Assembly: GCA_018062825.1 (NCBI GenBank)
Contig: JAGORL010000001.1
Location: 47,137-111,136, forward strand
Length of the DNA stretch: 64,000 bases
DNA from: Patescibacteria group bacterium
GTDB taxonomy: Bacteria; Patescibacteriota; Patescibacteriia; UBA9934
Reading direction: 5' to 3'
Below the pieces are notes generated by a model, which did no database searches, was not told the DNA's origin, and saw nothing but the letters and a program-made list of their open reading frames with translations. A program made the position numbers and the translations under genes. Positions 18,702 through 39,286 of the stretch are shown one piece after another; position 1 is the stretch's first letter, and every line of letters begins with the position of its first letter.

Positions 18702-19364
18702 ATGCGTTTTATCATCGTTGTTGCCCTTATATTTTTGCTCGGCGCTGGTTGCGCGCAACAAGGTCGAGAAACTACTGAAGATCGTGTCGCAAATCCAGAT
18801 AATAACTCTTCAGCGATCGATGAAGCGACCGAAAATAGTGAGAATGAAATACTGGAAGATGCTGAAGAATCTCAGGACCTTGTCGTGCCGCCGATTGATC
18901 CGGAAGCGGCTTGGGGTTATCACGCGACGCTTAAAGTTTTTGGCCAATTTGTCGATGACCGTTTCTATGGCTATCACGCCGGTGAAGATGTGGAAGTACT
19001 TCCAGAATTTGAAGGAAGTGATGTTGAAGTACGCGCAGCAGCAGAGGGTTACATTGTGTACAAAAATTGGGTAGGAGGTTATGGGGGAGTGGTAATTATC
19101 GAGCATGAAATCTCAGGCGAAATCTATCGATCGCTCTACGGACACCTTGATCTTGATTCAGTCACGCAAGACGTGGGTGAGCCGCTACAAAAGGGCGAAG
19201 TCTTTGCGCTTCTTGGCGACCCTTATTCAACCCAAACCGACGGCGAGCGTCAGCATCTGCACTTTAGTGTTTGGAAAGGTGAAGCGGTGCAGTTGGCGGG
19301 CTATGTCGGAAAATCAAGCGAGCTTGCTAAGTGGCTAAACCCACAAGACTTTTACAAGCTATAG
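18702..19364 (+). CDS. M23-family metallopeptidase lipoprotein
   Basis: Lipobox LLGAGC. M23 motifs GYHAGEDV, GGYGGVVIIEH, HLHFSV. ORF track starts at 18645; ATG at 18702 precedes the signal peptide. Confidence 0.75.
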   Translation: MRFIIVVALIFLLGAGCAQQGRETTEDRVANPDNNSSAIDEATENSENEILEDAEESQDLVVPPIDPEAAWGYHATLKVFGQFVDDRFYGYHAGEDVEVLPEFEGSDVEVRAAAEGYIVYKNWVGGYGGVVIIEHEISGEIYRSLYGHLDLDSVTQDVGEPLQKGEVFALLGDPYSTQTDGERQHLHFSVWKGEAVQLAGYVGKSSELAKWLNPQDFYKL

Positions 19365-20600
19365 ATACTTTCGTTTCTTTAGTCGATCAGGCAGATAGTC
19401 CTGCTTGGCATCCTCTGCATTTTCAAAAGCTGGTGTGTATTTGTAGTTCTTTCCGTAGCCAAGCTCTTTCATGAGCTTCGTTGGCGCATTGCGTAGGTGG
19501 ATTGGTACCGGCTCGTTCGGAAGTTCAGCAATGTCTTGCTTCACTTTTGCGTATCCAACATAAAGCGCATTTGATTTCGGGGCTTTCGCAAGATACGCCA
19601 CACACTGTGATAAAACGACGTTGCATTCCGGCATGCCAATGGCGTGCGCAGCTTGGTGCGCCGCCACCGCCTGAACAAGCGCCTGCGGATCAGCGAGACC
19701 GATATCTTCAGAGGCAAAGCGGACCAAGCGCCTGGTGATGTAGAGCGGATCTTCGCCTCCCTCAAGCATCCGACCAAGCCAGTACATAGCAGCTCCCGCA
19801 TCACCTCCTCGCATCGATTTGTGGAGGGCTGAGATGATGTTGTAATGCTCTTCGCCACCCTTGTCATAAAGAACGGCATTCTTTTTCAAAACGTCCGCCA
19901 CGAGTTCTTTGGTGATCTTCTTATTCTTCGTGGTCGTTGCCGCAATCTCAAGCGCGTTTAGCGCACTGCGTGCGTCGCCACTTGCGGTTGCCGCCAAAAA
20001 GCCGAGCGCTGCTTTATCTGCTGTGACTCCAAGTTTTCCAAGACCCTTCTCACTCTCGTTAAGCGCCCGTTGCAAAATACGCACAAGAGCTTCTTCTGGT
20101 AACTGTTCGAGTACCACCACTCGGCACCGAGAAAGCAAGGCGGCATTTACTTCAAATGAAGGATTCTCAGTCGTAGCACCAATAAAAGTCACAATCCCTT
20201 TTTCAACTGCTGGCAAAAATGCATCCTGCTGTGCCTTGTTAAAGCGATGAATCTCATCAACAAAGAGTGTTGTCCGTTCGCCGTAAAACTTGCGACGCTC
20301 CTCGGCATCTTTAATCACAGCTCGTACATCAGTAATGCTTCCACCGACTGCTGAAAATGGCACAAAGCGTGCCTTGGTGAGTGTGGCGATAATCCGGGCA
20401 AGTGTTGTTTTCCCAACCCCCGGTGGGCCCCAGAGCACAAGTGATGGCAATGAATCTTGTTCAATTGCTTGCTTAAGCCAAGTACCCTCACCGATGGCCC
20501 CAAGTTGACCCTCGTACTCAGAAAGGGTCGTTGGTCGAATGCGATCAGCAAGCGGAACCCCTTTAGGTAGGGTGTTCATTTTGGCATCAAAGAGGTCCAT
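19359..20600 (-). CDS. rarA: replication-associated recombination protein A (AAA+ ATPase)
   Basis: LVLWGPPGVGKTTLARIIA Walker A and MgsA C-terminal helical domain. Likely start at MDLFD (20600) rather than the track's 20669. Confidence 0.85.
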   Translation of the reverse strand: MDLFDAKMNTLPKGVPLADRIRPTTLSEYEGQLGAIGEGTWLKQAIEQDSLPSLVLWGPPGVGKTTLARIIATLTKARFVPFSAVGGSITDVRAVIKDAEERRKFYGERTTLFVDEIHRFNKAQQDAFLPAVEKGIVTFIGATTENPSFEVNAALLSRCRVVVLEQLPEEALVRILQRALNESEKGLGKLGVTADKAALGFLAATASGDARSALNALEIAATTTKNKKITKELVADVLKKNAVLYDKGGEEHYNIISALHKSMRGGDAGAAMYWLGRMLEGGEDPLYITRRLVRFASEDIGLADPQALVQAVAAHQAAHAIGMPECNVVLSQCVAYLAKAPKSNALYVGYAKVKQDIAELPNEPVPIHLRNAPTKLMKELGYGKNYKYTPAFENAEDAKQDYLPDRLKKRKYL

Positions 20601-20692
20601 AGCAATAAAATGACAGTAGTTGGAAGATTGACTTTTGTCACGTAAAATACTAGGATTATTAGTCCGCACCTGTGGACACCGGGAGATCAGAC

Positions 20693-21934
20693 ATGCTGGA
20701 AGGATTTCGTTCCTTGCTCGCCGACGAGTCGGCGGCCTACACCTGGCTCATGGAGCTTCACGAGGGAAGTCTCGCCACGATCGCGAAGGAGCGCGAGAAG
20801 ACCAACTGGGACAGCCTCACGCCTACCGAGCTTCTGCAGGAAGCTATGCAGGCGGTGGATCGCTGTGTGGCCGTTCTGCACCGCTGGGGCTTCGAGACCC
20901 ACTCCATGGACGCCGGCCACGGCATGGGCCACATCGTGCGTGACTACACGATGGCGCTCATCCTCGCGCCCTCCATGGAATGCTCGAACGTCGCGCGCTT
21001 CGCGGTCGTCCTCGCTGGCACCTTCCACGACATCGGCTGCGCCCTGCAGGGGCGCTACGAAGACGGCGAGCGCGCCGTTCGTCACGCCGAGGCCGGCGCG
21101 TACCTCATGCAGCTCGTGTTCACGGAAGCGGGTATCGACCCGCTCGTGAGCGAGCTCGCGGTCCTTGGGATCGTGGGTCACACCCACTACCCGCGGCCCA
21201 TGAAGGTCGTCTGCAAGGACGGCGTCGAGCGTGAGGTCAAGCCGTTCGTGGACCTGCACCCGGATGGGTCCCCCGTGATGTCGATCTGGGGACCCCGCTG
21301 GGTCGATCGCTGCGACCTGAACGGTCCGACCTTCATCGGTCGGCACGTGCTCACCCTCACGAACGTGCGGAAGGACTTCGATGGCGATGGCTTCTACGCC
21401 ATCGATCCCGCCGAGCACTTCCGTCCGATCATGCGCACCGCGGACGAGATCAAGGCCGCCGGTGGCGCCCGCACCATGCTCGAGCACATCGAGCTGTACC
21501 GTGGCAGCCAGTCGAACGCGTCCCTCTACGGCAAGTTCGACAGCCCCTTCATGCAGAGCATCCGCGACGAACGGGCGTCCTGCCTGAGCCACATCATGGC
21601 CGCGGTGCTCACCGGCGATGCGCCGCACGACATCGAAGCCACCCTCGTGCGCTTCGAGAGCTTCCTCGCCACGAACATCGAGCCAGATCCGGATCTCGGT
21701 CGACCGGCGGCAAGGAAGATCATGGCGGCCTTCCGTGAGCTCCCCGAACACACCAAGGAGCGTTGGGCAGCCGGGTTCGAGGCCACGATGGCCGAGTACC
21801 ACGTCTACCACGAGCAGATGATCGAGCTGCTCGCCGGAAGCAAGATCAGCCAGGGTCCAAGCGATGAGTTCCGGATCCTTGGCTACAGCGTGCTCTCGGT
21901 GCTCACCCCGCACCGTTCCTGGTCCGCGCGCTAG
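20693..21934 (+). CDS. HD-superfamily metal-dependent phosphohydrolase; compositionally foreign (~65% GC)
   Basis: Motifs H...GHGMGH ... FHDIG ... H ... D. Good SD sequence (GGGAG 8 nt upstream). GC3-rich codon usage, unlike neighbours. Antisense ORF 20687..21955 has GC-artefact composition. Confidence 0.6.
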   Translation: MLEGFRSLLADESAAYTWLMELHEGSLATIAKEREKTNWDSLTPTELLQEAMQAVDRCVAVLHRWGFETHSMDAGHGMGHIVRDYTMALILAPSMECSNVARFAVVLAGTFHDIGCALQGRYEDGERAVRHAEAGAYLMQLVFTEAGIDPLVSELAVLGIVGHTHYPRPMKVVCKDGVEREVKPFVDLHPDGSPVMSIWGPRWVDRCDLNGPTFIGRHVLTLTNVRKDFDGDGFYAIDPAEHFRPIMRTADEIKAAGGARTMLEHIELYRGSQSNASLYGKFDSPFMQSIRDERASCLSHIMAAVLTGDAPHDIEATLVRFESFLATNIEPDPDLGRPAARKIMAAFRELPEHTKERWAAGFEATMAEYHVYHEQMIELLAGSKISQGPSDEFRILGYSVLSVLTPHRSWSAR

Positions 21935-21948
21935 GCGCCGCGACCACC

Positions 21949-21986
21949 TCGCCACCCAAGCCTTGAAAGAGGTGCGGGTGGCTTTT
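21949..21986. terminator. GC-rich hairpin terminator shared by HD gene (+) and rsmB (-)
   Basis: gccaccc-aagccttgaaagaggtgc-gggtggc followed by ttttctattt. Confidence 0.5.
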
Positions 21987-22925
21987 CTATTTGTCGGACT
22001 TCTTCACCTTTGCAACGAAGAACCCTTCATGAAGCACAGTTGGTAAAACAATCGTGCCTGCAGTTGTCTTTTTAATATCTTTAAGGGGGAGTGCGCTTGG
22101 CTGCAAGCTTAATTCAGGAAACTCAGTAAGAAGCCAAGTAATCATCTGTTCATTTTCTTGCGGCGCAAGCGTGCAGGTTGAGTAAACAAGTTCGCCTCCT
22201 GGGGCAAGTGCGCGTACAGCTGCACGCAAGAGTCGGCGCTGCAGCTTGGCATGCTCGGTAATATTTTTCTCAGACCAGTACTTAAAGGTACGTACGTCGC
22301 TAAAATCAACGCGCCCTTCAGCCGAGCAGGGGACGTCGGCTAGGATCTTGGTAAAACGACCATTCCACTCTTCAGGTAGGCGAGTGCTATCAATATGCTT
22401 TACCTCGGTATGAAGTACGCGTTGCACATCAAGCGTATGCTGCAGTTTTTGCACGCGGATGTCATTCTCTTCACAGGCAATGAGCGTGCCCTGATCATGC
22501 ATAAGTGCCGCCATCTGCGACGTCTTACTGCCAGGAGCCGCACAAAGGTCAAGAACAAGATCGCTCTTGGTTGGCGCAAGAACAAGCGGTGGCAATTGAG
22601 AGGCTATGCCTTGAAGATAGATCTTGCCACTTGTGGTAAGCGGGTGAGCAAGCATCTCTTTGTCACCTTTATTTTTAACTACAAAGGCATGCGGAATATC
22701 CTTCACACGCTCAAAGGCAATAGCATCGTTCCGCAGTGTCTCCATGACTGATGCGTCATCGGTAACGATTGTGTTTACTCGAAACGTTGTTTTGCGAGGG
22801 CTACCAAAAACCTTCACCATCGCGTCGGTTATATGATCGCCAAATTGAGTACGCAGTCGATCGTAGAGGGTTTGATGTAGGGGATTTTTCATACATGACG
22901 CAAAGTCGGATGGGTATAGTGCCAA
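21987..22925 (-). CDS. rsmB: 16S rRNA m5C methyltransferase (RsmB/RsmF, NOL1/NOP2/Sun family)
   Basis: SAM motif LDLCAAPGSKTSQMA and catalytic PCSAEG...YSTCTL. Confidence 0.75.
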   Translation of the reverse strand: MALYPSDFASCMKNPLHQTLYDRLRTQFGDHITDAMVKVFGSPRKTTFRVNTIVTDDASVMETLRNDAIAFERVKDIPHAFVVKNKGDKEMLAHPLTTSGKIYLQGIASQLPPLVLAPTKSDLVLDLCAAPGSKTSQMAALMHDQGTLIACEENDIRVQKLQHTLDVQRVLHTEVKHIDSTRLPEEWNGRFTKILADVPCSAEGRVDFSDVRTFKYWSEKNITEHAKLQRRLLRAAVRALAPGGELVYSTCTLAPQENEQMITWLLTEFPELSLQPSALPLKDIKKTTAGTIVLPTVLHEGFFVAKVKKSDK

Positions 22926-29317: not shown

Positions 29318-30169
29318 CTAAGGCACAGCAACAAGCAGGCGGTGCAGGAGCGTGGTCGCAAGAACGGCGCTGTCGCCAAGCTTGTCCACCGCGCGTTGGT
29401 ACCCTTCGGCGTTGTACGAGCGCAGCTGTTCGCTAAGCTCGTCGTTGTACGCCTGATTCACTGCGCGCAGCTGCCTGAGGCCAGCTACGAGGTCTTCGTC
29501 GAAGATGAGTGGGTGCGCCTCGGCACGCGCGATGATCTCATCGTAGTGCACGAGCATCGGACACGGCTCTCCCAGGCATTGAAGTACGTTGCGGACTCCG
29601 TGAAACGGGGCCTTGGTGGCATCGGTCAGAAGGTCGGCGCTCTCCTGGCGCCGCAGCGCTCGTTGGCGAGACAGTGCATCCTCCATGGCCTGATGCTTGT
29701 ACGTCAGGTAGGAGAGTGCCACCGCGCGCGGCTTGTGCCGACCGTTGAACTTGAAGTAGCGGGTCGGTTCAGGCGTGCGTGAGGCAAGTCCAATCGCAGC
29801 GCACGCGTGCAGGTGAGAGGCGAACCCTTCACCGATCGCGTGCTTGGCGCTACGTGCCAGGAAAAGGTCGCACCAGATGGTGGAGACCTTCACGTGATAG
29901 TGTGCCAAGTTCGCGAGGAACTCATCGACTTGCTGCGCTCGACGCCGCGTCTCGCGCGGATCAAGCGTCGTGCTCTCGTACAGGATGAACACATCAAGGT
30001 CAGACCGCGGCCCGTGTAGGCCCGCGGCATACGAGCCGCAAATGACGGCGTTCACCACCCAGGGCTGCTCTTTGAGCCAGGTCAGAAGGGTTGTCGCAAC
30101 TACGGTGAAGTTCTCGTGAGTAGGAACCTTCTTCAGACGTACGTCGGCGGCCAAGTAAACGCGTCCCAC
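29318..30169 (-). CDS. Pol-beta superfamily nucleotidyltransferase, AadA/ANT(3'')(9)-like; compositionally foreign (~62% GC)
   Basis: VICGSYAAGLHGPRSDLDVFILY has the same GS-x10-DxD spacing as AadA (LYGSAVDGGLKPHSDIDLLV), plus LDPRETRRRA and a helical C-terminal domain. GTG start with AGGAGG SD. Confidence 0.55.
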   Translation of the reverse strand: MGRVYLAADVRLKKVPTHENFTVVATTLLTWLKEQPWVVNAVICGSYAAGLHGPRSDLDVFILYESTTLDPRETRRRAQQVDEFLANLAHYHVKVSTIWCDLFLARSAKHAIGEGFASHLHACAAIGLASRTPEPTRYFKFNGRHKPRAVALSYLTYKHQAMEDALSRQRALRRQESADLLTDATKAPFHGVRNVLQCLGEPCPMLVHYDEIIARAEAHPLIFDEDLVAGLRQLRAVNQAYNDELSEQLRSYNAEGYQRAVDKLGDSAVLATTLLHRLLVAVP

Positions 30170-30847: not shown

Positions 30848-32074
30848 ATGGTCCACTTCATCGACGATTCGTCGAGTGATGCTTGGTTCGCTTCGATCAA
30901 AGAGCATCCAACGCTCGGTCGTGAATACAGGCTGATGATGCAGCTGCTGGAGGTTCTGCTCCCCACTTCCTCCAACAAGCATGGGCGCCGCTCCCGATTC
31001 GGGATGGCATACCAGGAGGTTTACGGGCCAAGTGAGTACGCGGCAGAGGTCATTCACCGCCGGTTCAAGCAGTGCGCTGCTCGTATCCGCACGGAAGATG
31101 AGCGGATCGTGAAGGAGTTCTTCTACCCGTATGAGGCGGATCTGCATGCGGAAAGTCGCGTGCGCAACACCTACGATCCCGAGTCGCTTCTCGGCTACTG
31201 CAATCTCGGTGCAAGCGACGGCCTGATTGACATGCAGGCACGCGTGGAAGCTGTGGCACGCTTCATCACCTCGCGCCTCTTGCTGTACGCCGATCTTCAC
31301 GAGAGTGAGGTTGACGTCGGCGAGCAAGAAGGGGTAATTCTCGCGCAACTGCTCCCGCGGTTGTTCGTGCAAGAGTGTTCCCTCGAGACCTTCCTGGATC
31401 TGTCTCTTGATCGTCGCGCCAAGTGGCGCATCAAGGACTGGTCGATCGACGGTCGTCGGCTCGACGGCCGCATCCGCCTGCAGGAGCGCTTCCTGTGCCG
31501 AGCCTTCGAGATCGATGGCGTCAATCACCCCGTCTACATCGAGGATCGCGTGAAATCCGATTTCAGCAGCATCCTCAAGATGCTGAGGAAGAATCAAGAC
31601 ATGGGCAAGGAGAACGATAAGCGCGGCGTGCGCATGATCGTTTTCTCCCAGAAGGCCTTCAACGAGTTCGTGAAGGCGCTGCGTTCAGAGCTCTCTCGTG
31701 GCCGCTTTCAGGTCATCGAAGAGAGTGAGAATATCTCCACGGCTGGGAAGGTGGACAGCAATAACCCGGTGAGTAAGGAGGACTTCCGCGTACATCGCTT
31801 CGTGGCTGAGTACGCCGACCCGGGCCACAGCAAGTACCGCGTGGAGGTGAACGTTCAGTTCGTCGACGACTACCTCAACGACCGTTGGTCGCTTTCGCCG
31901 GCTCGGCACGAGCTCTATCGGTTTGAGCAACTGCAGCGCTACTTCTGCCCGTTCCGATACCCGCGCTTCATCCACGGCATCGACTGGACACCCGGTTCGC
32001 AGTTCGATCAGCGCATGCGAACCTTCATGGACTACCGACGTCGCGCCAAGGTCCTGGCTCGGTCCGCTCGCTAG
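30848..32074 (+). CDS. RelA/SpoT-family (alarmone synthetase fold) nucleotidyltransferase with ~230-aa N-terminal domain of unknown function; compositionally foreign (~60% GC)
   Basis: RVKSDFSSILKMLRK matches RxKxxxSxxxK (compare RelQ RVKPVASILEKARRK). DKRGVRMIVF matches DxxGxRI. VEVNVQF...ARHELYRFE is an EIQIRT...H..YKY analogue. GGGAGG SD. Confidence 0.55.
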   Translation: MVHFIDDSSSDAWFASIKEHPTLGREYRLMMQLLEVLLPTSSNKHGRRSRFGMAYQEVYGPSEYAAEVIHRRFKQCAARIRTEDERIVKEFFYPYEADLHAESRVRNTYDPESLLGYCNLGASDGLIDMQARVEAVARFITSRLLLYADLHESEVDVGEQEGVILAQLLPRLFVQECSLETFLDLSLDRRAKWRIKDWSIDGRRLDGRIRLQERFLCRAFEIDGVNHPVYIEDRVKSDFSSILKMLRKNQDMGKENDKRGVRMIVFSQKAFNEFVKALRSELSRGRFQVIEESENISTAGKVDSNNPVSKEDFRVHRFVAEYADPGHSKYRVEVNVQFVDDYLNDRWSLSPARHELYRFEQLQRYFCPFRYPRFIHGIDWTPGSQFDQRMRTFMDYRRRAKVLARSAR

Positions 32075-38092: not shown

Positions 38093-39286
38093 ATGGCAGA
38101 GCAATTCGTGCGTGAGAAACCGCACTTGAACGTCGGAACTATTGGTCACGTTGACCATGGTAAGACCACAACTACCGCCGCTCTTACAGCCGTTTCTGCG
38201 GCTCGCGGTCTTGGTAAAGTTAAGTCCTACGCGGATATCGCAAAGGGTGGTACGGTGCGCGATTCTTCAAAGATCGTTACTATCGCTACCTCTCATGTTG
38301 AGTATTCCTCGGACAAGCGCCACTATGCGCACGTTGACTGTCCAGGTCACGCCGACTACGTCAAGAACATGATTACTGGTGCCGCTCAGATGGACGCTGC
38401 AATTCTTGTAGTTTCCGCAGCTGACGGTCCAATGCCACAGACCCGCGAGCACATTCTTTTGGCTCGTCAGGTTGGTGTTCCATACATCATCGTTTTCTTG
38501 AACAAGGTTGACCTTGTTGACGATCCAGAGCTTTTGGATCTCGTTGAGCAGGAAATCCGTGACCTTTTGAACAAGTACAACTTCCCAGGCGACACCACGC
38601 CGATCGTTCGTGGTTCAGCTTCCAAGGCACTTGAGAACCCATCTGACGATGCGGCTGCTAAGTGTATCCTTGACCTCATCAAGGCTCTTGATGAGTACGT
38701 TCCAGATCCAGTTCGCGAGACCGAAAAGCCGTTCCTCATGTCTATCGAAGACGTCTTCTCTATTGAAGGTCGTGGTACGGTAGCAACCGGTCGTATCGAG
38801 CGCGGTCAGCTTAAGGTAGGTGATGAAGTTGAAGTTGTTGGTCTCCGCGACACCCAGAAGACGGTTGTTACGGGTATCGAAATGTTCAACAAGTCTCTTG
38901 ATTCTGGTATGGCAGGTGACAACGCTGGTGTTCTTCTTCGCGGTGTGAAGAAGACCGACCTTGAGCGTGGTCAGGTTCTTGCTAAGCCAGGTTCCGTAAC
39001 TCCTCACACCAAGTTCGAGGCTGAGCTTATCGCTCTTACAAAGGAAGAAGGTGGTCGCCACAAGCCTTTCTTTAAGGGTTACAAGCCACAGTTCTACATC
39101 CGTACCACAGATGTAACGGGTGAGATCGAGCTTCCAGCAGGTGTTGAGATGGTTATGCCAGGCGACACCGTTAACTGTATCGTTACCCTTTCAAGCCCAG
39201 TTGCTCTTGAAGACAAGATGCGCTTCGCTGTTCGTGAAGGTGGTCGCACAGTTGGTGCTGGTGTTGTAGTAAAAATTCTTGAGTAA
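38093..39286 (+). CDS. tuf: elongation factor Tu
   Basis: [23 protein letters not shown]. 397 aa. Confidence 0.97.

Follow-up and report, generated by a model that had tools for sequence, protein, structure and literature searches.

The compositionally atypical HD-domain gene between rarA and rsmB in an Uhrbacteria-like Patescibacterium

Is a gene whose codons depart sharply from those of its neighbours necessarily a recent arrival, or can such a composition be old and still be kept up? This question is raised by the interval between rarA and rsmB in a stretch of 64,000 nt from contig JAGORL010000001.1 of an Uhrbacteria-like Patescibacterium (hereafter the window; coordinates are those of this stretch unless a locus label precedes them). 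The interval contains a gene for an HD-domain protein of 413 aa (20693-21934, plus strand; GC content 0.654; GC content at third codon positions, GC3, 0.867), hereafter the HD gene, from a family almost restricted to bacteria of the Candidate Phyla Radiation (CPR) and DPANN archaea. An earlier note on this DNA had taken the gene for a foreign single-gene cassette, an interpretation that holds in part. The joint reading that we favour, with slightly better than even confidence, is that of an accessory HD-phosphohydrolase unit that was acquired together with a Nudix gene in a variable rarA-rsmB slot, has been kept vertically since and has had its GC3 maintained.

Composition and synonymous divergence of the HD gene

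In 300-nt windows, GC content rises from about 0.48-0.52 to 0.64-0.68 between approximately positions 20700 and 21950, and the GC3 of the HD gene lies 7.1 standard deviations above that of 63 native genes of the window (mean 0.497, standard deviation 0.052). The segment of about 1.3 kb with raised GC and GC3-biased codons that the earlier note had described is therefore confirmed, and its compositional observation is real. The anomaly lies almost wholly at third codon positions (GC1, GC2 and GC3 of 0.652, 0.442 and 0.867), GC1 and GC2 being barely above those of the host, and rarA, rsmB and the other neighbours have GC3 values of 0.41-0.53. It is uniform along the coding sequence (0.75-0.93 in every block of 40 codons) and its edges are sharp: the adjoining blocks of rarA and rsmB have GC3 values of 0.47 and 0.52, and the 92-nt 5' intergenic region has 41% GC. 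The two flanking genes are native and intact, as had been stated: rarA/mgsA on the left (19359-20600, minus strand, 413 aa, GC3 0.48; MgsA_C and AAA) and, on the right, the gene for an RsmB/RsmF-type 16S rRNA methyltransferase (21987-22889, minus strand, 300 aa, GC3 0.47; Methyltr_RsmB-F). Since the edges coincide with the coding sequence and the promoter region has 41% GC, regional biased gene conversion is disfavoured. Host translational selection was considered as a cause and rejected as unlikely, because GC3 is near 0.5 (about 0.43-0.58) both in a probable tuf gene (38093-39286) and in genes of ribosomal-protein size at about 40-52 kb.

Composition steps as sharp as these at both ends would be expected if a high-GC fragment had been mis-joined into a contig of 50% GC, and the possibility of a chimeric assembly had been raised earlier. 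The HD protein has three nearer relatives, at 78%, 71% and 60% identity, all others being at 30-43%. In the locus encoding the first of these (L001, from SRR17347193), the gene order is M23-rarA-HD-rsmB-rhodanese-gdh-leuS and the HD gene has a GC3 of 0.836, against 0.41-0.48 for its flanks; in the locus of the second (L057, JGI 3300032144), the order is Nudix-HD-rsmB, with the HD gene adjoining rsmB. The GC3 jump at the HD gene is repeated in both. The same junctions thus occur in independent assemblies from other samples, together with the promoter region and the terminator, both of which are found again in L001, and the U-tract of this terminator overlaps the rsmB stop codon. A mis-join is thereby excluded, and the probability that we leave to a chimera is negligible.

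In a comparison of the window with L001 by the Nei-Gojobori method (NG86), the flanking genes gave synonymous divergences (dS) of 0.87-2.6, and the HD gene had the lowest dS (0.53) and the highest nonsynonymous divergence (dN, 0.136) of the genes compared. Such dS values alone cannot distinguish a younger coalescence from synonymous constraint, whereas GC-neutral G↔C changes can, and these were used as a clock at four-fold degenerate sites of the HD gene and of eight flanking genes. Per four-fold site occupied by G or C (S) in both sequences, G↔C differences amounted to 32/130 = 0.246 in the HD gene and 87/379 = 0.230 in the flanks (p=0.72), which indicates that the HD gene has been diverging for as long as its flanks. 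In contrast, GC-changing mismatches, between S and A or T (W), were found at 0.179 of sites in the HD gene versus 0.387 in the flanks (odds ratio 0.35, p=3e-8). Under a neutral relaxation model calibrated on the flanks, even an ancestral GC3 of 1.0 predicts a present value of 0.72, as opposed to the observed 0.84 (P=2e-7), and 40% S/W mismatches, as opposed to 18% (P=4e-10); the back-extrapolated ancestral GC3 of the HD gene is 1.25, which is impossible. A second GC-rich gene of the window, also conserved in L001, served as an internal control: NTase283, a nucleotidyltransferase of 283 aa (29318-30169, minus strand, GC3 0.735, synonymous-site GC3 about 0.68-0.70; Pfam NTP_transf_2 and a weak MntA-antitoxin-like NCBIfam match), behaved neutrally, its S/W mismatch (0.41) being like that of the flanks and its GC3 extrapolating back to 0.88. 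GC-lowering synonymous changes are thus under-represented about two-fold in the HD gene, and its extreme GC3 is being sustained instead of decaying. It follows that G/C-ending codons are favoured in this gene specifically, by selection or by some force that acts like it. The view implied earlier, that the gene arrived recently and that its GC still bears the mark of a donor, was not borne out, since GC3 has stayed near 0.85 through near-saturating synonymous divergence alongside the flanks, beyond what neutral amelioration allows.

The same pattern was found for a Nudix gene that occupies the rarA-rsmB interval in two related loci, L139 and L140: with flanks about 90% saturated, its G↔C divergence is 0.327, compared with 0.344 in the flanks (pooled), its four-fold GC3 is 0.80 and its S/W mismatch is 0.225. 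Across the family, the gene has a GC3 more than 0.10 above its flanks at 21 loci, compared with 2 loci at which it lies more than 0.10 below them, and the excess is also seen inside rml operons (L007 and L034).

Some results weigh against maintenance and the history that we favour. The family-wide excess may be inflated, because crude ORF calling gives flank GC3 values that are too low in high-GC loci. Decay to host GC3 was not rejected when a non-stationary S/W model was fitted by maximum likelihood (ML) with branch lengths left free (likelihood-ratio test 0.49, p=0.49), and for this reason the claim of maintenance rests on the flanks and the G↔C changes as a clock. The HemolysinCabind protein gene found in the slot of L139 and two other accessory genes of the window are also GC3-rich, which fits a GC-rich accessory gene pool equally well. 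Gain of the HD gene and its loss in the outgroups are, moreover, about equally parsimonious. A parsimony polarisation of the synonymous changes, which had given apparent stationarity (p=1.5e-5), was withdrawn, because ML disagrees and homoplasy with distant outgroups inflates both classes of change.

If the gene had recently been transferred from a non-CPR donor of high GC, for instance an actinobacterium, its GC3 would be the unameliorated codon usage of that donor. A GC3 of 0.87 is what genomes with 65-70% GC typically show, the ML model allows for a root GC3 of about 0.97 that decays to host values, and one family member lies on a 66%-GC contig labelled Vicinamibacterales (L019). However, no actinobacterial member was found among 212 family clusters or 51 genome loci, and the nearest relatives outside the window clade are Patescibacteria. 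Orthologues are present at this site in lineages separated by a flank dS of 0.9-2.6, the G↔C clock matches that of the flanks, neutral decay is rejected by the calibrated model and GC1 and GC2 are barely above those of the host. We consider such a transfer very improbable. If maintenance is true, it would be a case of persistent selection on codon composition within a genome that mimics recent horizontal transfer and would routinely be mis-scored as such, and detection of transfer from composition would call for caution, given that an outlier of 7 standard deviations in GC3 may be old, vertically inherited and compositionally maintained.

The rarA-rsmB slot and the history of its contents

Outside the window clade, rsmB has its closest relatives at 55-62% identity, many of them bearing the label Candidatus Uhrbacteria. 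Three of these loci, L139, L140 and L141, have the same backbone, infB-trxA-trxB-rarA-slot-rsmB followed by gdh or leuS, but lack the HD gene, which occurs in this slot only in the window clade. The slot of L140 reads rsmB-NUDIX-rarA, the Nudix protein having 223 aa. That of L139, in the order rsmB-Hly-unk225-rarA, holds a 57%-identical orthologue of this protein (225 aa) and a HemolysinCabind (RTX-repeat) protein of 385 aa (L139 5963-7120, minus strand; GC3 0.756, flanks 0.42-0.61) that is unrelated to either the HD or the Nudix proteins. In L141 the order is rsmB-unk288-rarA, with an unannotated Nudix-like protein of 288 aa. The slot genes of these three loci have GC3 values of 0.76-0.87, and all slot genes in all lineages are GC3-rich (0.76-0.93) in comparison with host genes (0.42-0.61). 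The presence of different genes in the same backbone order indicates that the rarA-rsmB interval is a variable accessory slot. With several GC3-rich contents and deep divergence, it is a compact natural system for studying what keeps synonymous sites far from mutational equilibrium. In L139 (1-1957, minus strand), the leuS product has 947 aa with an internal NUDIX match, compared with 783 aa for that of the window, maybe as a result of a Nudix insertion or fusion.

The Nudix proteins encoded next to the HD gene in L057 and in a further locus, L058, do not belong to the Nudix subtype that fills the slot in L139 and L140, and there is no direct BLAST match between the two, which suggests that an incoming module of Nudix and HD genes replaced a resident Nudix gene. 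Most likely, the HD gene would have been acquired with the second-subtype Nudix gene in the ancestor of the window clade. The two-gene state would survive in L057, with the same pair in L058, the incoming Nudix gene would have been lost later in the lineage of the window and L001, and the HD gene would have been inherited vertically since then. Acquisition of the HD gene at this site is supported by its absence from L139, L140 and L141. A search of metagenome contigs with rarA for a closer relative with an empty site gave best matches of about 60% identity, none of them syntenic.

In several respects the unit resembles a classical genomic islet of the Lawrence-Ochman amelioration model: it is a single atypical gene, with its own promoter and terminator, lying between conserved housekeeping genes and absent from the site in relatives. 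Unlike such an islet, it lacks mobility signatures, has not ameliorated at the neutral rate and is anomalous almost purely at third positions. Neither att-like (attachment-site) or target-duplication repeats nor an integrase were found at the locus, only 10-mers at chance level inside rarA and rsmB, and searches of phage, plasmid and IMG/VR collections yielded no homologue of the HD protein. Of the acquired cassette proposed earlier there remains a single aberrant gene, absent from the site in L139, L140 and L141; its recency does not remain, and neither does its mobility, for want of repeats, integrase and phage, plasmid or viral homologues.

Two other histories have to be weighed against acquisition. 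The first involves no transfer: the pair of Nudix and HD genes would be ancestral to the slot, with the HD gene lost in L139, L140 and L141 and the Nudix gene in the window and L001, and GC3 would be an intrinsic, selected property. Nudix and HD genes are paired widely and in both domains, the Nudix gene in the slot of L139 and L140 is vertically inherited and retains a GC3 near 0.8 despite saturation, the GC3 excess of the family is one-sided even inside the rml operons, and the parsimony of gain and loss is, as mentioned, about equal. On the other hand, the difference between the Nudix subtypes suggests that a module came in and displaced the resident gene, the window clade stands alone on a long branch of the family tree, and members of the family usually lie in clusters for nucleoside diphosphate (NDP)-sugar metabolism rather than in the rarA-rsmB slot. 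We regard a history without transfer as unlikely, while giving it some weight.

The second is that the slot is a hot spot for integration or recombination, refilled time and again from a GC-rich mobile gene pool, with contents that are always young and for that reason always GC-rich. At least four gene contents occur in the slot in six lineages, all GC3-rich and including the unrelated HemolysinCabind gene. The two other GC3-rich accessory genes of the window can be read in the same way. One is NTase283: in L140, ndk directly adjoins the metallo-beta-lactamase (MBL) gene, so that NTase283 is an insertion in the lineage of the window and L001. The other, a third compositional outlier, is an ORF of 408 aa just after ndk (30848-32074, plus strand, GC3 0.757), for which no Pfam or NCBIfam match was obtained. 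Furthermore, Terrybacteria loci have an insertion sequence (IS)-type integrase gene some 540 bp upstream of their family gene. However, the G↔C clock makes the HD gene (window and L001) and the Nudix gene (L139 and L140) as old as their flanks; repeats, att sites and an integrase are missing from the locus, as are homologues in the phage, plasmid and IMG/VR collections, and no CPR donor pool with a genome-wide GC3 of about 0.9 is evident. A constantly refilled hot spot is therefore improbable in our view, and acquisition followed by vertical inheritance is preferred. In the Terrybacteria loci (L002 6507-7457 and L003 37-987), the transposase has rve integrase and HTH_32 domains, and an ORF of 67 aa separates it from the family gene.

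The HD protein family and its predicted activity

An exhaustive HMMER search yielded 212 family clusters at 50% identity, nearly all of 390-430 aa. The genome loci with a family gene number 51, mostly from CPR bacteria and DPANN archaea. Among the 20 homologues in the protein database, every named one is from Patescibacteria or Nanoarchaeota. The named CPR carriers are Terry-, Falkow-, Uhr-, Peregrini-, Woese- and Shapirobacteria and Saccharibacteria, and those of DPANN are Nano-, Woese- and Pacearchaeota and Parvarchaeum. The family, of about 400 aa, is thus uncharacterised, unannotated and almost confined to CPR bacteria and DPANN archaea. The actinobacterial or similar donor envisaged earlier finds no place here, the named homologues being from CPR and DPANN lineages except for two labelled Acidobacteria and several implausible 'Gammaproteobacteria'. 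A literature search on the family retrieved nothing relevant beyond a review of the HD superfamily (PMC8177086). In the family tree, the window clade forms an isolated long branch, with Patescibacteria as its nearest relatives outside the clade, and DPANN and CPR sequences are interleaved, with a clade of Woese-, Pace- and Nanoarchaeota, a separate pair of Nanoarchaeota and Parvarchaeum, and an 'archaeon' among the CPR sequences. This interleaving implies several transfers between domains.

The two loci with Acidobacteria labels, given here as deposited, are L019 (Vicinamibacterales) and L048 (Sulfotelmatobacter). In addition, many Third Party Annotation (TPA)/binchicken metagenome-assembled genomes carrying the gene are titled 'uncultured Gammaproteobacteria' or 'Pseudomonadales' (L011, L012, L014, L023, L024, L026, L030 and others); these labels are doubtful and resemble placeholders or mistakes, since the loci share the family gene and types of neighbourhood with CPR-labelled loci.

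The HD protein carries the motifs GHGMGH and FHDIG, the HD-superfamily metal ligands pointed out in the earlier note, and its match to the Pfam HD domain (PF01966) just passes, at 22.9 bits versus a cutoff of 22; the domain was detected in 53/117 members. As had also been stated, no named housekeeping HD enzyme was matched: besides this marginal hit, the NCBIfam and PADLOC libraries gave only sub-threshold noise of Cas3-HD or HDIG type, and searches with the single sequence returned nothing from PDB and nothing useful from PHROGs. A Cas3 or Cas3'' HD nuclease was rejected, TIGR01596 scoring 16 bits against a cutoff of 43.45 and PADLOC Cas3 giving E values of 1e-3 to 7e-2, with no cas genes nearby. 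Alignments of 20 and 117 members revealed conservation of H76, G79, H80, R83, D84, H112-D113, R121, H131 and E133 and, further along, of H163-T164, R202, D205-R206 and R217. Conservation is complete or at least 90% at H80, H112-D113 and D205, and it is at least 90% across the 117 sequences at H131 and H163. The protein thus carries the extended six-residue H..HD..H..H..D pattern, which is diagnostic of a dinuclear site according to the HD-superfamily review (PMC8177086), and a two-metal site is predicted as probable from these residues.

An AlphaFold2 model built from the family alignment (predicted local distance difference test, pLDDT, 91.2; predicted template-modelling score, pTM, 0.91) is largely helical; beyond the HD fold of the YpgQ-like proteins it has an additional helical segment at the N terminus, an inserted beta-hairpin and, at the C terminus, a helical domain of about 160 aa. 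The best Foldseek matches in PDB were 2pjq, 3dto, 2pq7, 3b57 and 5dqw (probability 1.00, target-normalised template-modelling (TM) score 0.54-0.68). The family profile also retrieved structures of this kind, namely 2pq7 (E=1.2e-5), 2qgs (1e-3), 3dto (0.04) and YpgQ (5dqv, 0.12), at about 15% identity. The motifs GHxxxHxxR, HD, HAExGA and DRLDxxG are common to the family and the YpgQ-like matches. HD phosphatases are described as having a conserved arginine close to their first metal histidine (PMC8177086). In this family, R83, conserved in at least 90% of sequences, follows H80 by three residues instead of preceding it and aligns with the arginine of 2pq7, 2qgs and 3dto. On the basis of these similarities, we place the protein in the HD superfamily and regard it as remotely related to the YpgQ-like branch, with a larger size, rather than as a YpgQ orthologue.

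Comparison with characterised relatives shows where the family departs from them. With the YpgQ-like proteins (Bacillus subtilis YpgQ, 5DQV/5DQW, and its structural-genomics relatives 2PQ7, 2QGS, 3DTO, 2PJQ and 3B57), it has the HD fold and the above motifs in common, which makes a nucleotide substrate plausible. However, these are single-domain proteins of about 200-220 aa, whereas the HD protein has 413 aa with helical extras at its N and C termini. YpgQ is a Mn-dependent pyrophosphohydrolase of (deoxy)nucleoside triphosphates, (d)NTPs, reported as mononuclear (PMC8177086), whereas this family has six conserved metal-type ligands and, unlike YpgQ, is CPR/DPANN-restricted and found in the context of NDP-sugar and Nudix genes. 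YqeK, a dinuclear HD phosphohydrolase that hydrolyses diadenosine tetraphosphate (Ap4A), shares the extended H..HD..H..H..D motif, but there is no detectable match in sequence or structure between it and the HD protein, and size and context differ.

The same six-ligand motif is shared by the HD-domain diiron oxygenases MIOX, PhnZ and TmpB. The HD protein could accordingly be a mixed-valent diiron oxygenase of this type, acting on a sugar or phosphonate during the synthesis of glycans, since family genes sit among sugar-modifying genes; MIOX feeds sugar-nucleotide metabolism. Nevertheless, the family profile retrieved no oxygenase (MIOX, PhnZ or TmpB), nor SAMHD1, YqeK or Cas3, from PDB at E<=10, and MIOX, PhnZ and TmpB are not among the Foldseek matches listed; what both methods brought up among these matches are YpgQ-like hydrolases. 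The many conserved arginines of the pocket and the Nudix partner fit a phosphorylated nucleotide substrate, and a PhnY-like partner did not turn up in a census of neighbouring genes. An oxygenase role is a minority possibility, to which we assign a low probability.

That census covered the 148 nearest neighbours, up to three per locus, at about 50 loci, with representatives confirmed individually. NAD-dependent sugar epimerase/dehydratases of the RmlB/RmlD class accounted for 33/148 and were accompanied by 9 RmlA-type nucleotidyltransferases, 5 RmlC, 5 glycosyltransferases of family 2 (GT2), 3 DegT aminotransferases and 3 NDP-hexose C-methyltransferases. A Nudix gene is divergent from the HD gene within 200-510 bp in L018 (Parvarchaeum), L049 and L050 and lies immediately upstream of it in L057 and L058, and the HD-adjacent Nudix proteins are mutually homologous across loci. 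In L028, a gene resembling those for purine nucleoside phosphorylase lies beside the HD gene.

The HD protein would accordingly act as a metal-dependent phosphohydrolase on a substrate of nucleotide type, that is, an NTP, an NDP, a nucleotide-sugar or their products, and the many conserved arginines are consistent with a phosphate-rich substrate. Together with a partner Nudix hydrolase, it may recycle or clear nucleotide moieties from NDP-sugar metabolism, a recycling that would take place in organisms dependent on nucleotide salvage. Several points tell against this assignment: the function is inferred from sequence, model and context; the Foldseek matches to YpgQ-like structures are weak (E>0.03, query-normalised TM about 0.3); the protein is twice the size of its YpgQ-like relatives; and, in the window, the HD gene adjoins neither a sugar gene nor a Nudix gene. 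The broader proposition that CPR and DPANN organisms possess a Nudix and HD module with an unrecognised activity on nucleotides or NDP-sugars, selected for G/C-ending codons and having an equilibrium GC3 of about 0.8 in genomes of about 0.5, is advanced tentatively and with a low probability. That the module protects its own mRNA from an RNA-directed activity of these enzymes, and that this is the cause of the GC3, is speculative. Common to the two ultra-small symbiotic radiations, CPR and DPANN, and linked to NDP-sugar clusters and a Nudix partner, this unannotated family, whose proteins of about 400 aa probably have a two-metal site, would be a candidate for a missing step of nucleotide or nucleotide-sugar recycling in organisms without de novo nucleotide synthesis.

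Two of the loci show further compositional contrasts. In L028 (4870-7724; an independent Patescibacterium with a flank GC of 0.47), the phosphorylase-like gene, the HD-family gene (GC3 0.86) and a small ORF form a GC-rich block of about 2.8 kb. In L050 (4681-5379, minus strand), the Nudix gene has a GC3 of 0.61 with flanks of about 0.28, and the adjacent HD gene (0.23) is like its host, the reverse of the situation in the window.

Predicted expression signals and open reading frames

The start of the HD protein is the ATG at 20693 in all orthologues and in the NCBI annotation, the mechanical ORF list having placed it at a GTG (20672); the HD-domain ORF described earlier is thus present, with a length of 413 rather than 414 aa. 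A large protein database holds an identical protein under the locus tag KBC55_00395, annotated as hypothetical and assigned to a Patescibacteria group bacterium, and an exact-protein lookup of the HD protein of the window gave no record. RarA starts at the ATG at 20600 (413 aa, as in L001), and the mechanical ORF (GTG 20669, 436 aa) is over-extended. It follows that the two genes do not abut and are separated by a conserved divergent promoter region of 92 nt.

This region contains two overlapping sigma-70-like promoter matches, TTGGAA-17-TAAAAT and TTGACT-17-TAGGAT (20620-20656, plus strand), where 0.3 would be expected by chance, and it is near-identical in L001 and conserved in L057. Between the -10 element and the Shine-Dalgarno (SD) sequence lies an imperfect palindrome, GTCCGCAC-N-TGTGGAC (20662-20677, plus strand), which occurs once in the window and is also found in L001, L057 and L058, varying at the central base only. 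As RNA it would form a 6-bp hairpin that folds no better than shuffled sequences (z=-0.7), and it could be an operator or a 5' untranslated region (5'-UTR) hairpin. An Rfam search of the 5' region detected no riboswitch or known RNA at E<=1. The SD sequence GGGAGA (20681-20686, plus strand) lies 6 nt upstream of the ATG, with GGGAG kept in L001, L057 and L058. Downstream of the gene, an intrinsic terminator (21951-21992, plus strand) consists of a stem-loop (21951-21982; -23.9 kcal/mol by direct folding) followed by UUUUCUAUUU, and the rsmB stop codon (21987-21989, minus strand) sits within its U-tract. The same hairpin is present in L001. A consensus terminator scanner reported no terminator for the HD gene, probably because the outer 7-bp stem encloses about 18 nt, which is above the 8-nt loop limit of the scanner. 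The SD sequence and the hairpin terminator at the rsmB stop had both been noted earlier and are both retained here. With a promoter, a 5' palindrome, an SD sequence, a coding sequence and a terminator, all signals being predicted, the HD gene would be a self-contained accessory unit of about 1.37 kb.

The complementary strand of the HD gene carries an ORF of 422 aa (20687-21955, minus strand), which had been suspected of being a high-GC artefact. It was ruled out as a gene and is a shadow of the GC3-rich sense frame: it lies in the exact reverse-complement codon register, so that its stops would equal sense TTA, CTA and TCA codons; the third positions of the HD gene are only 4% A, and the probability of an open antisense frame, given the codon usage of the gene, is 0.11. 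A Pfam search of this ORF gave no match, and in L001 a CTA and a TCA codon interrupt it, so that no more than 226 aa remain open. Long shadow ORFs are also found on the antisense strand of the 408-aa ORF at 30848-32074.

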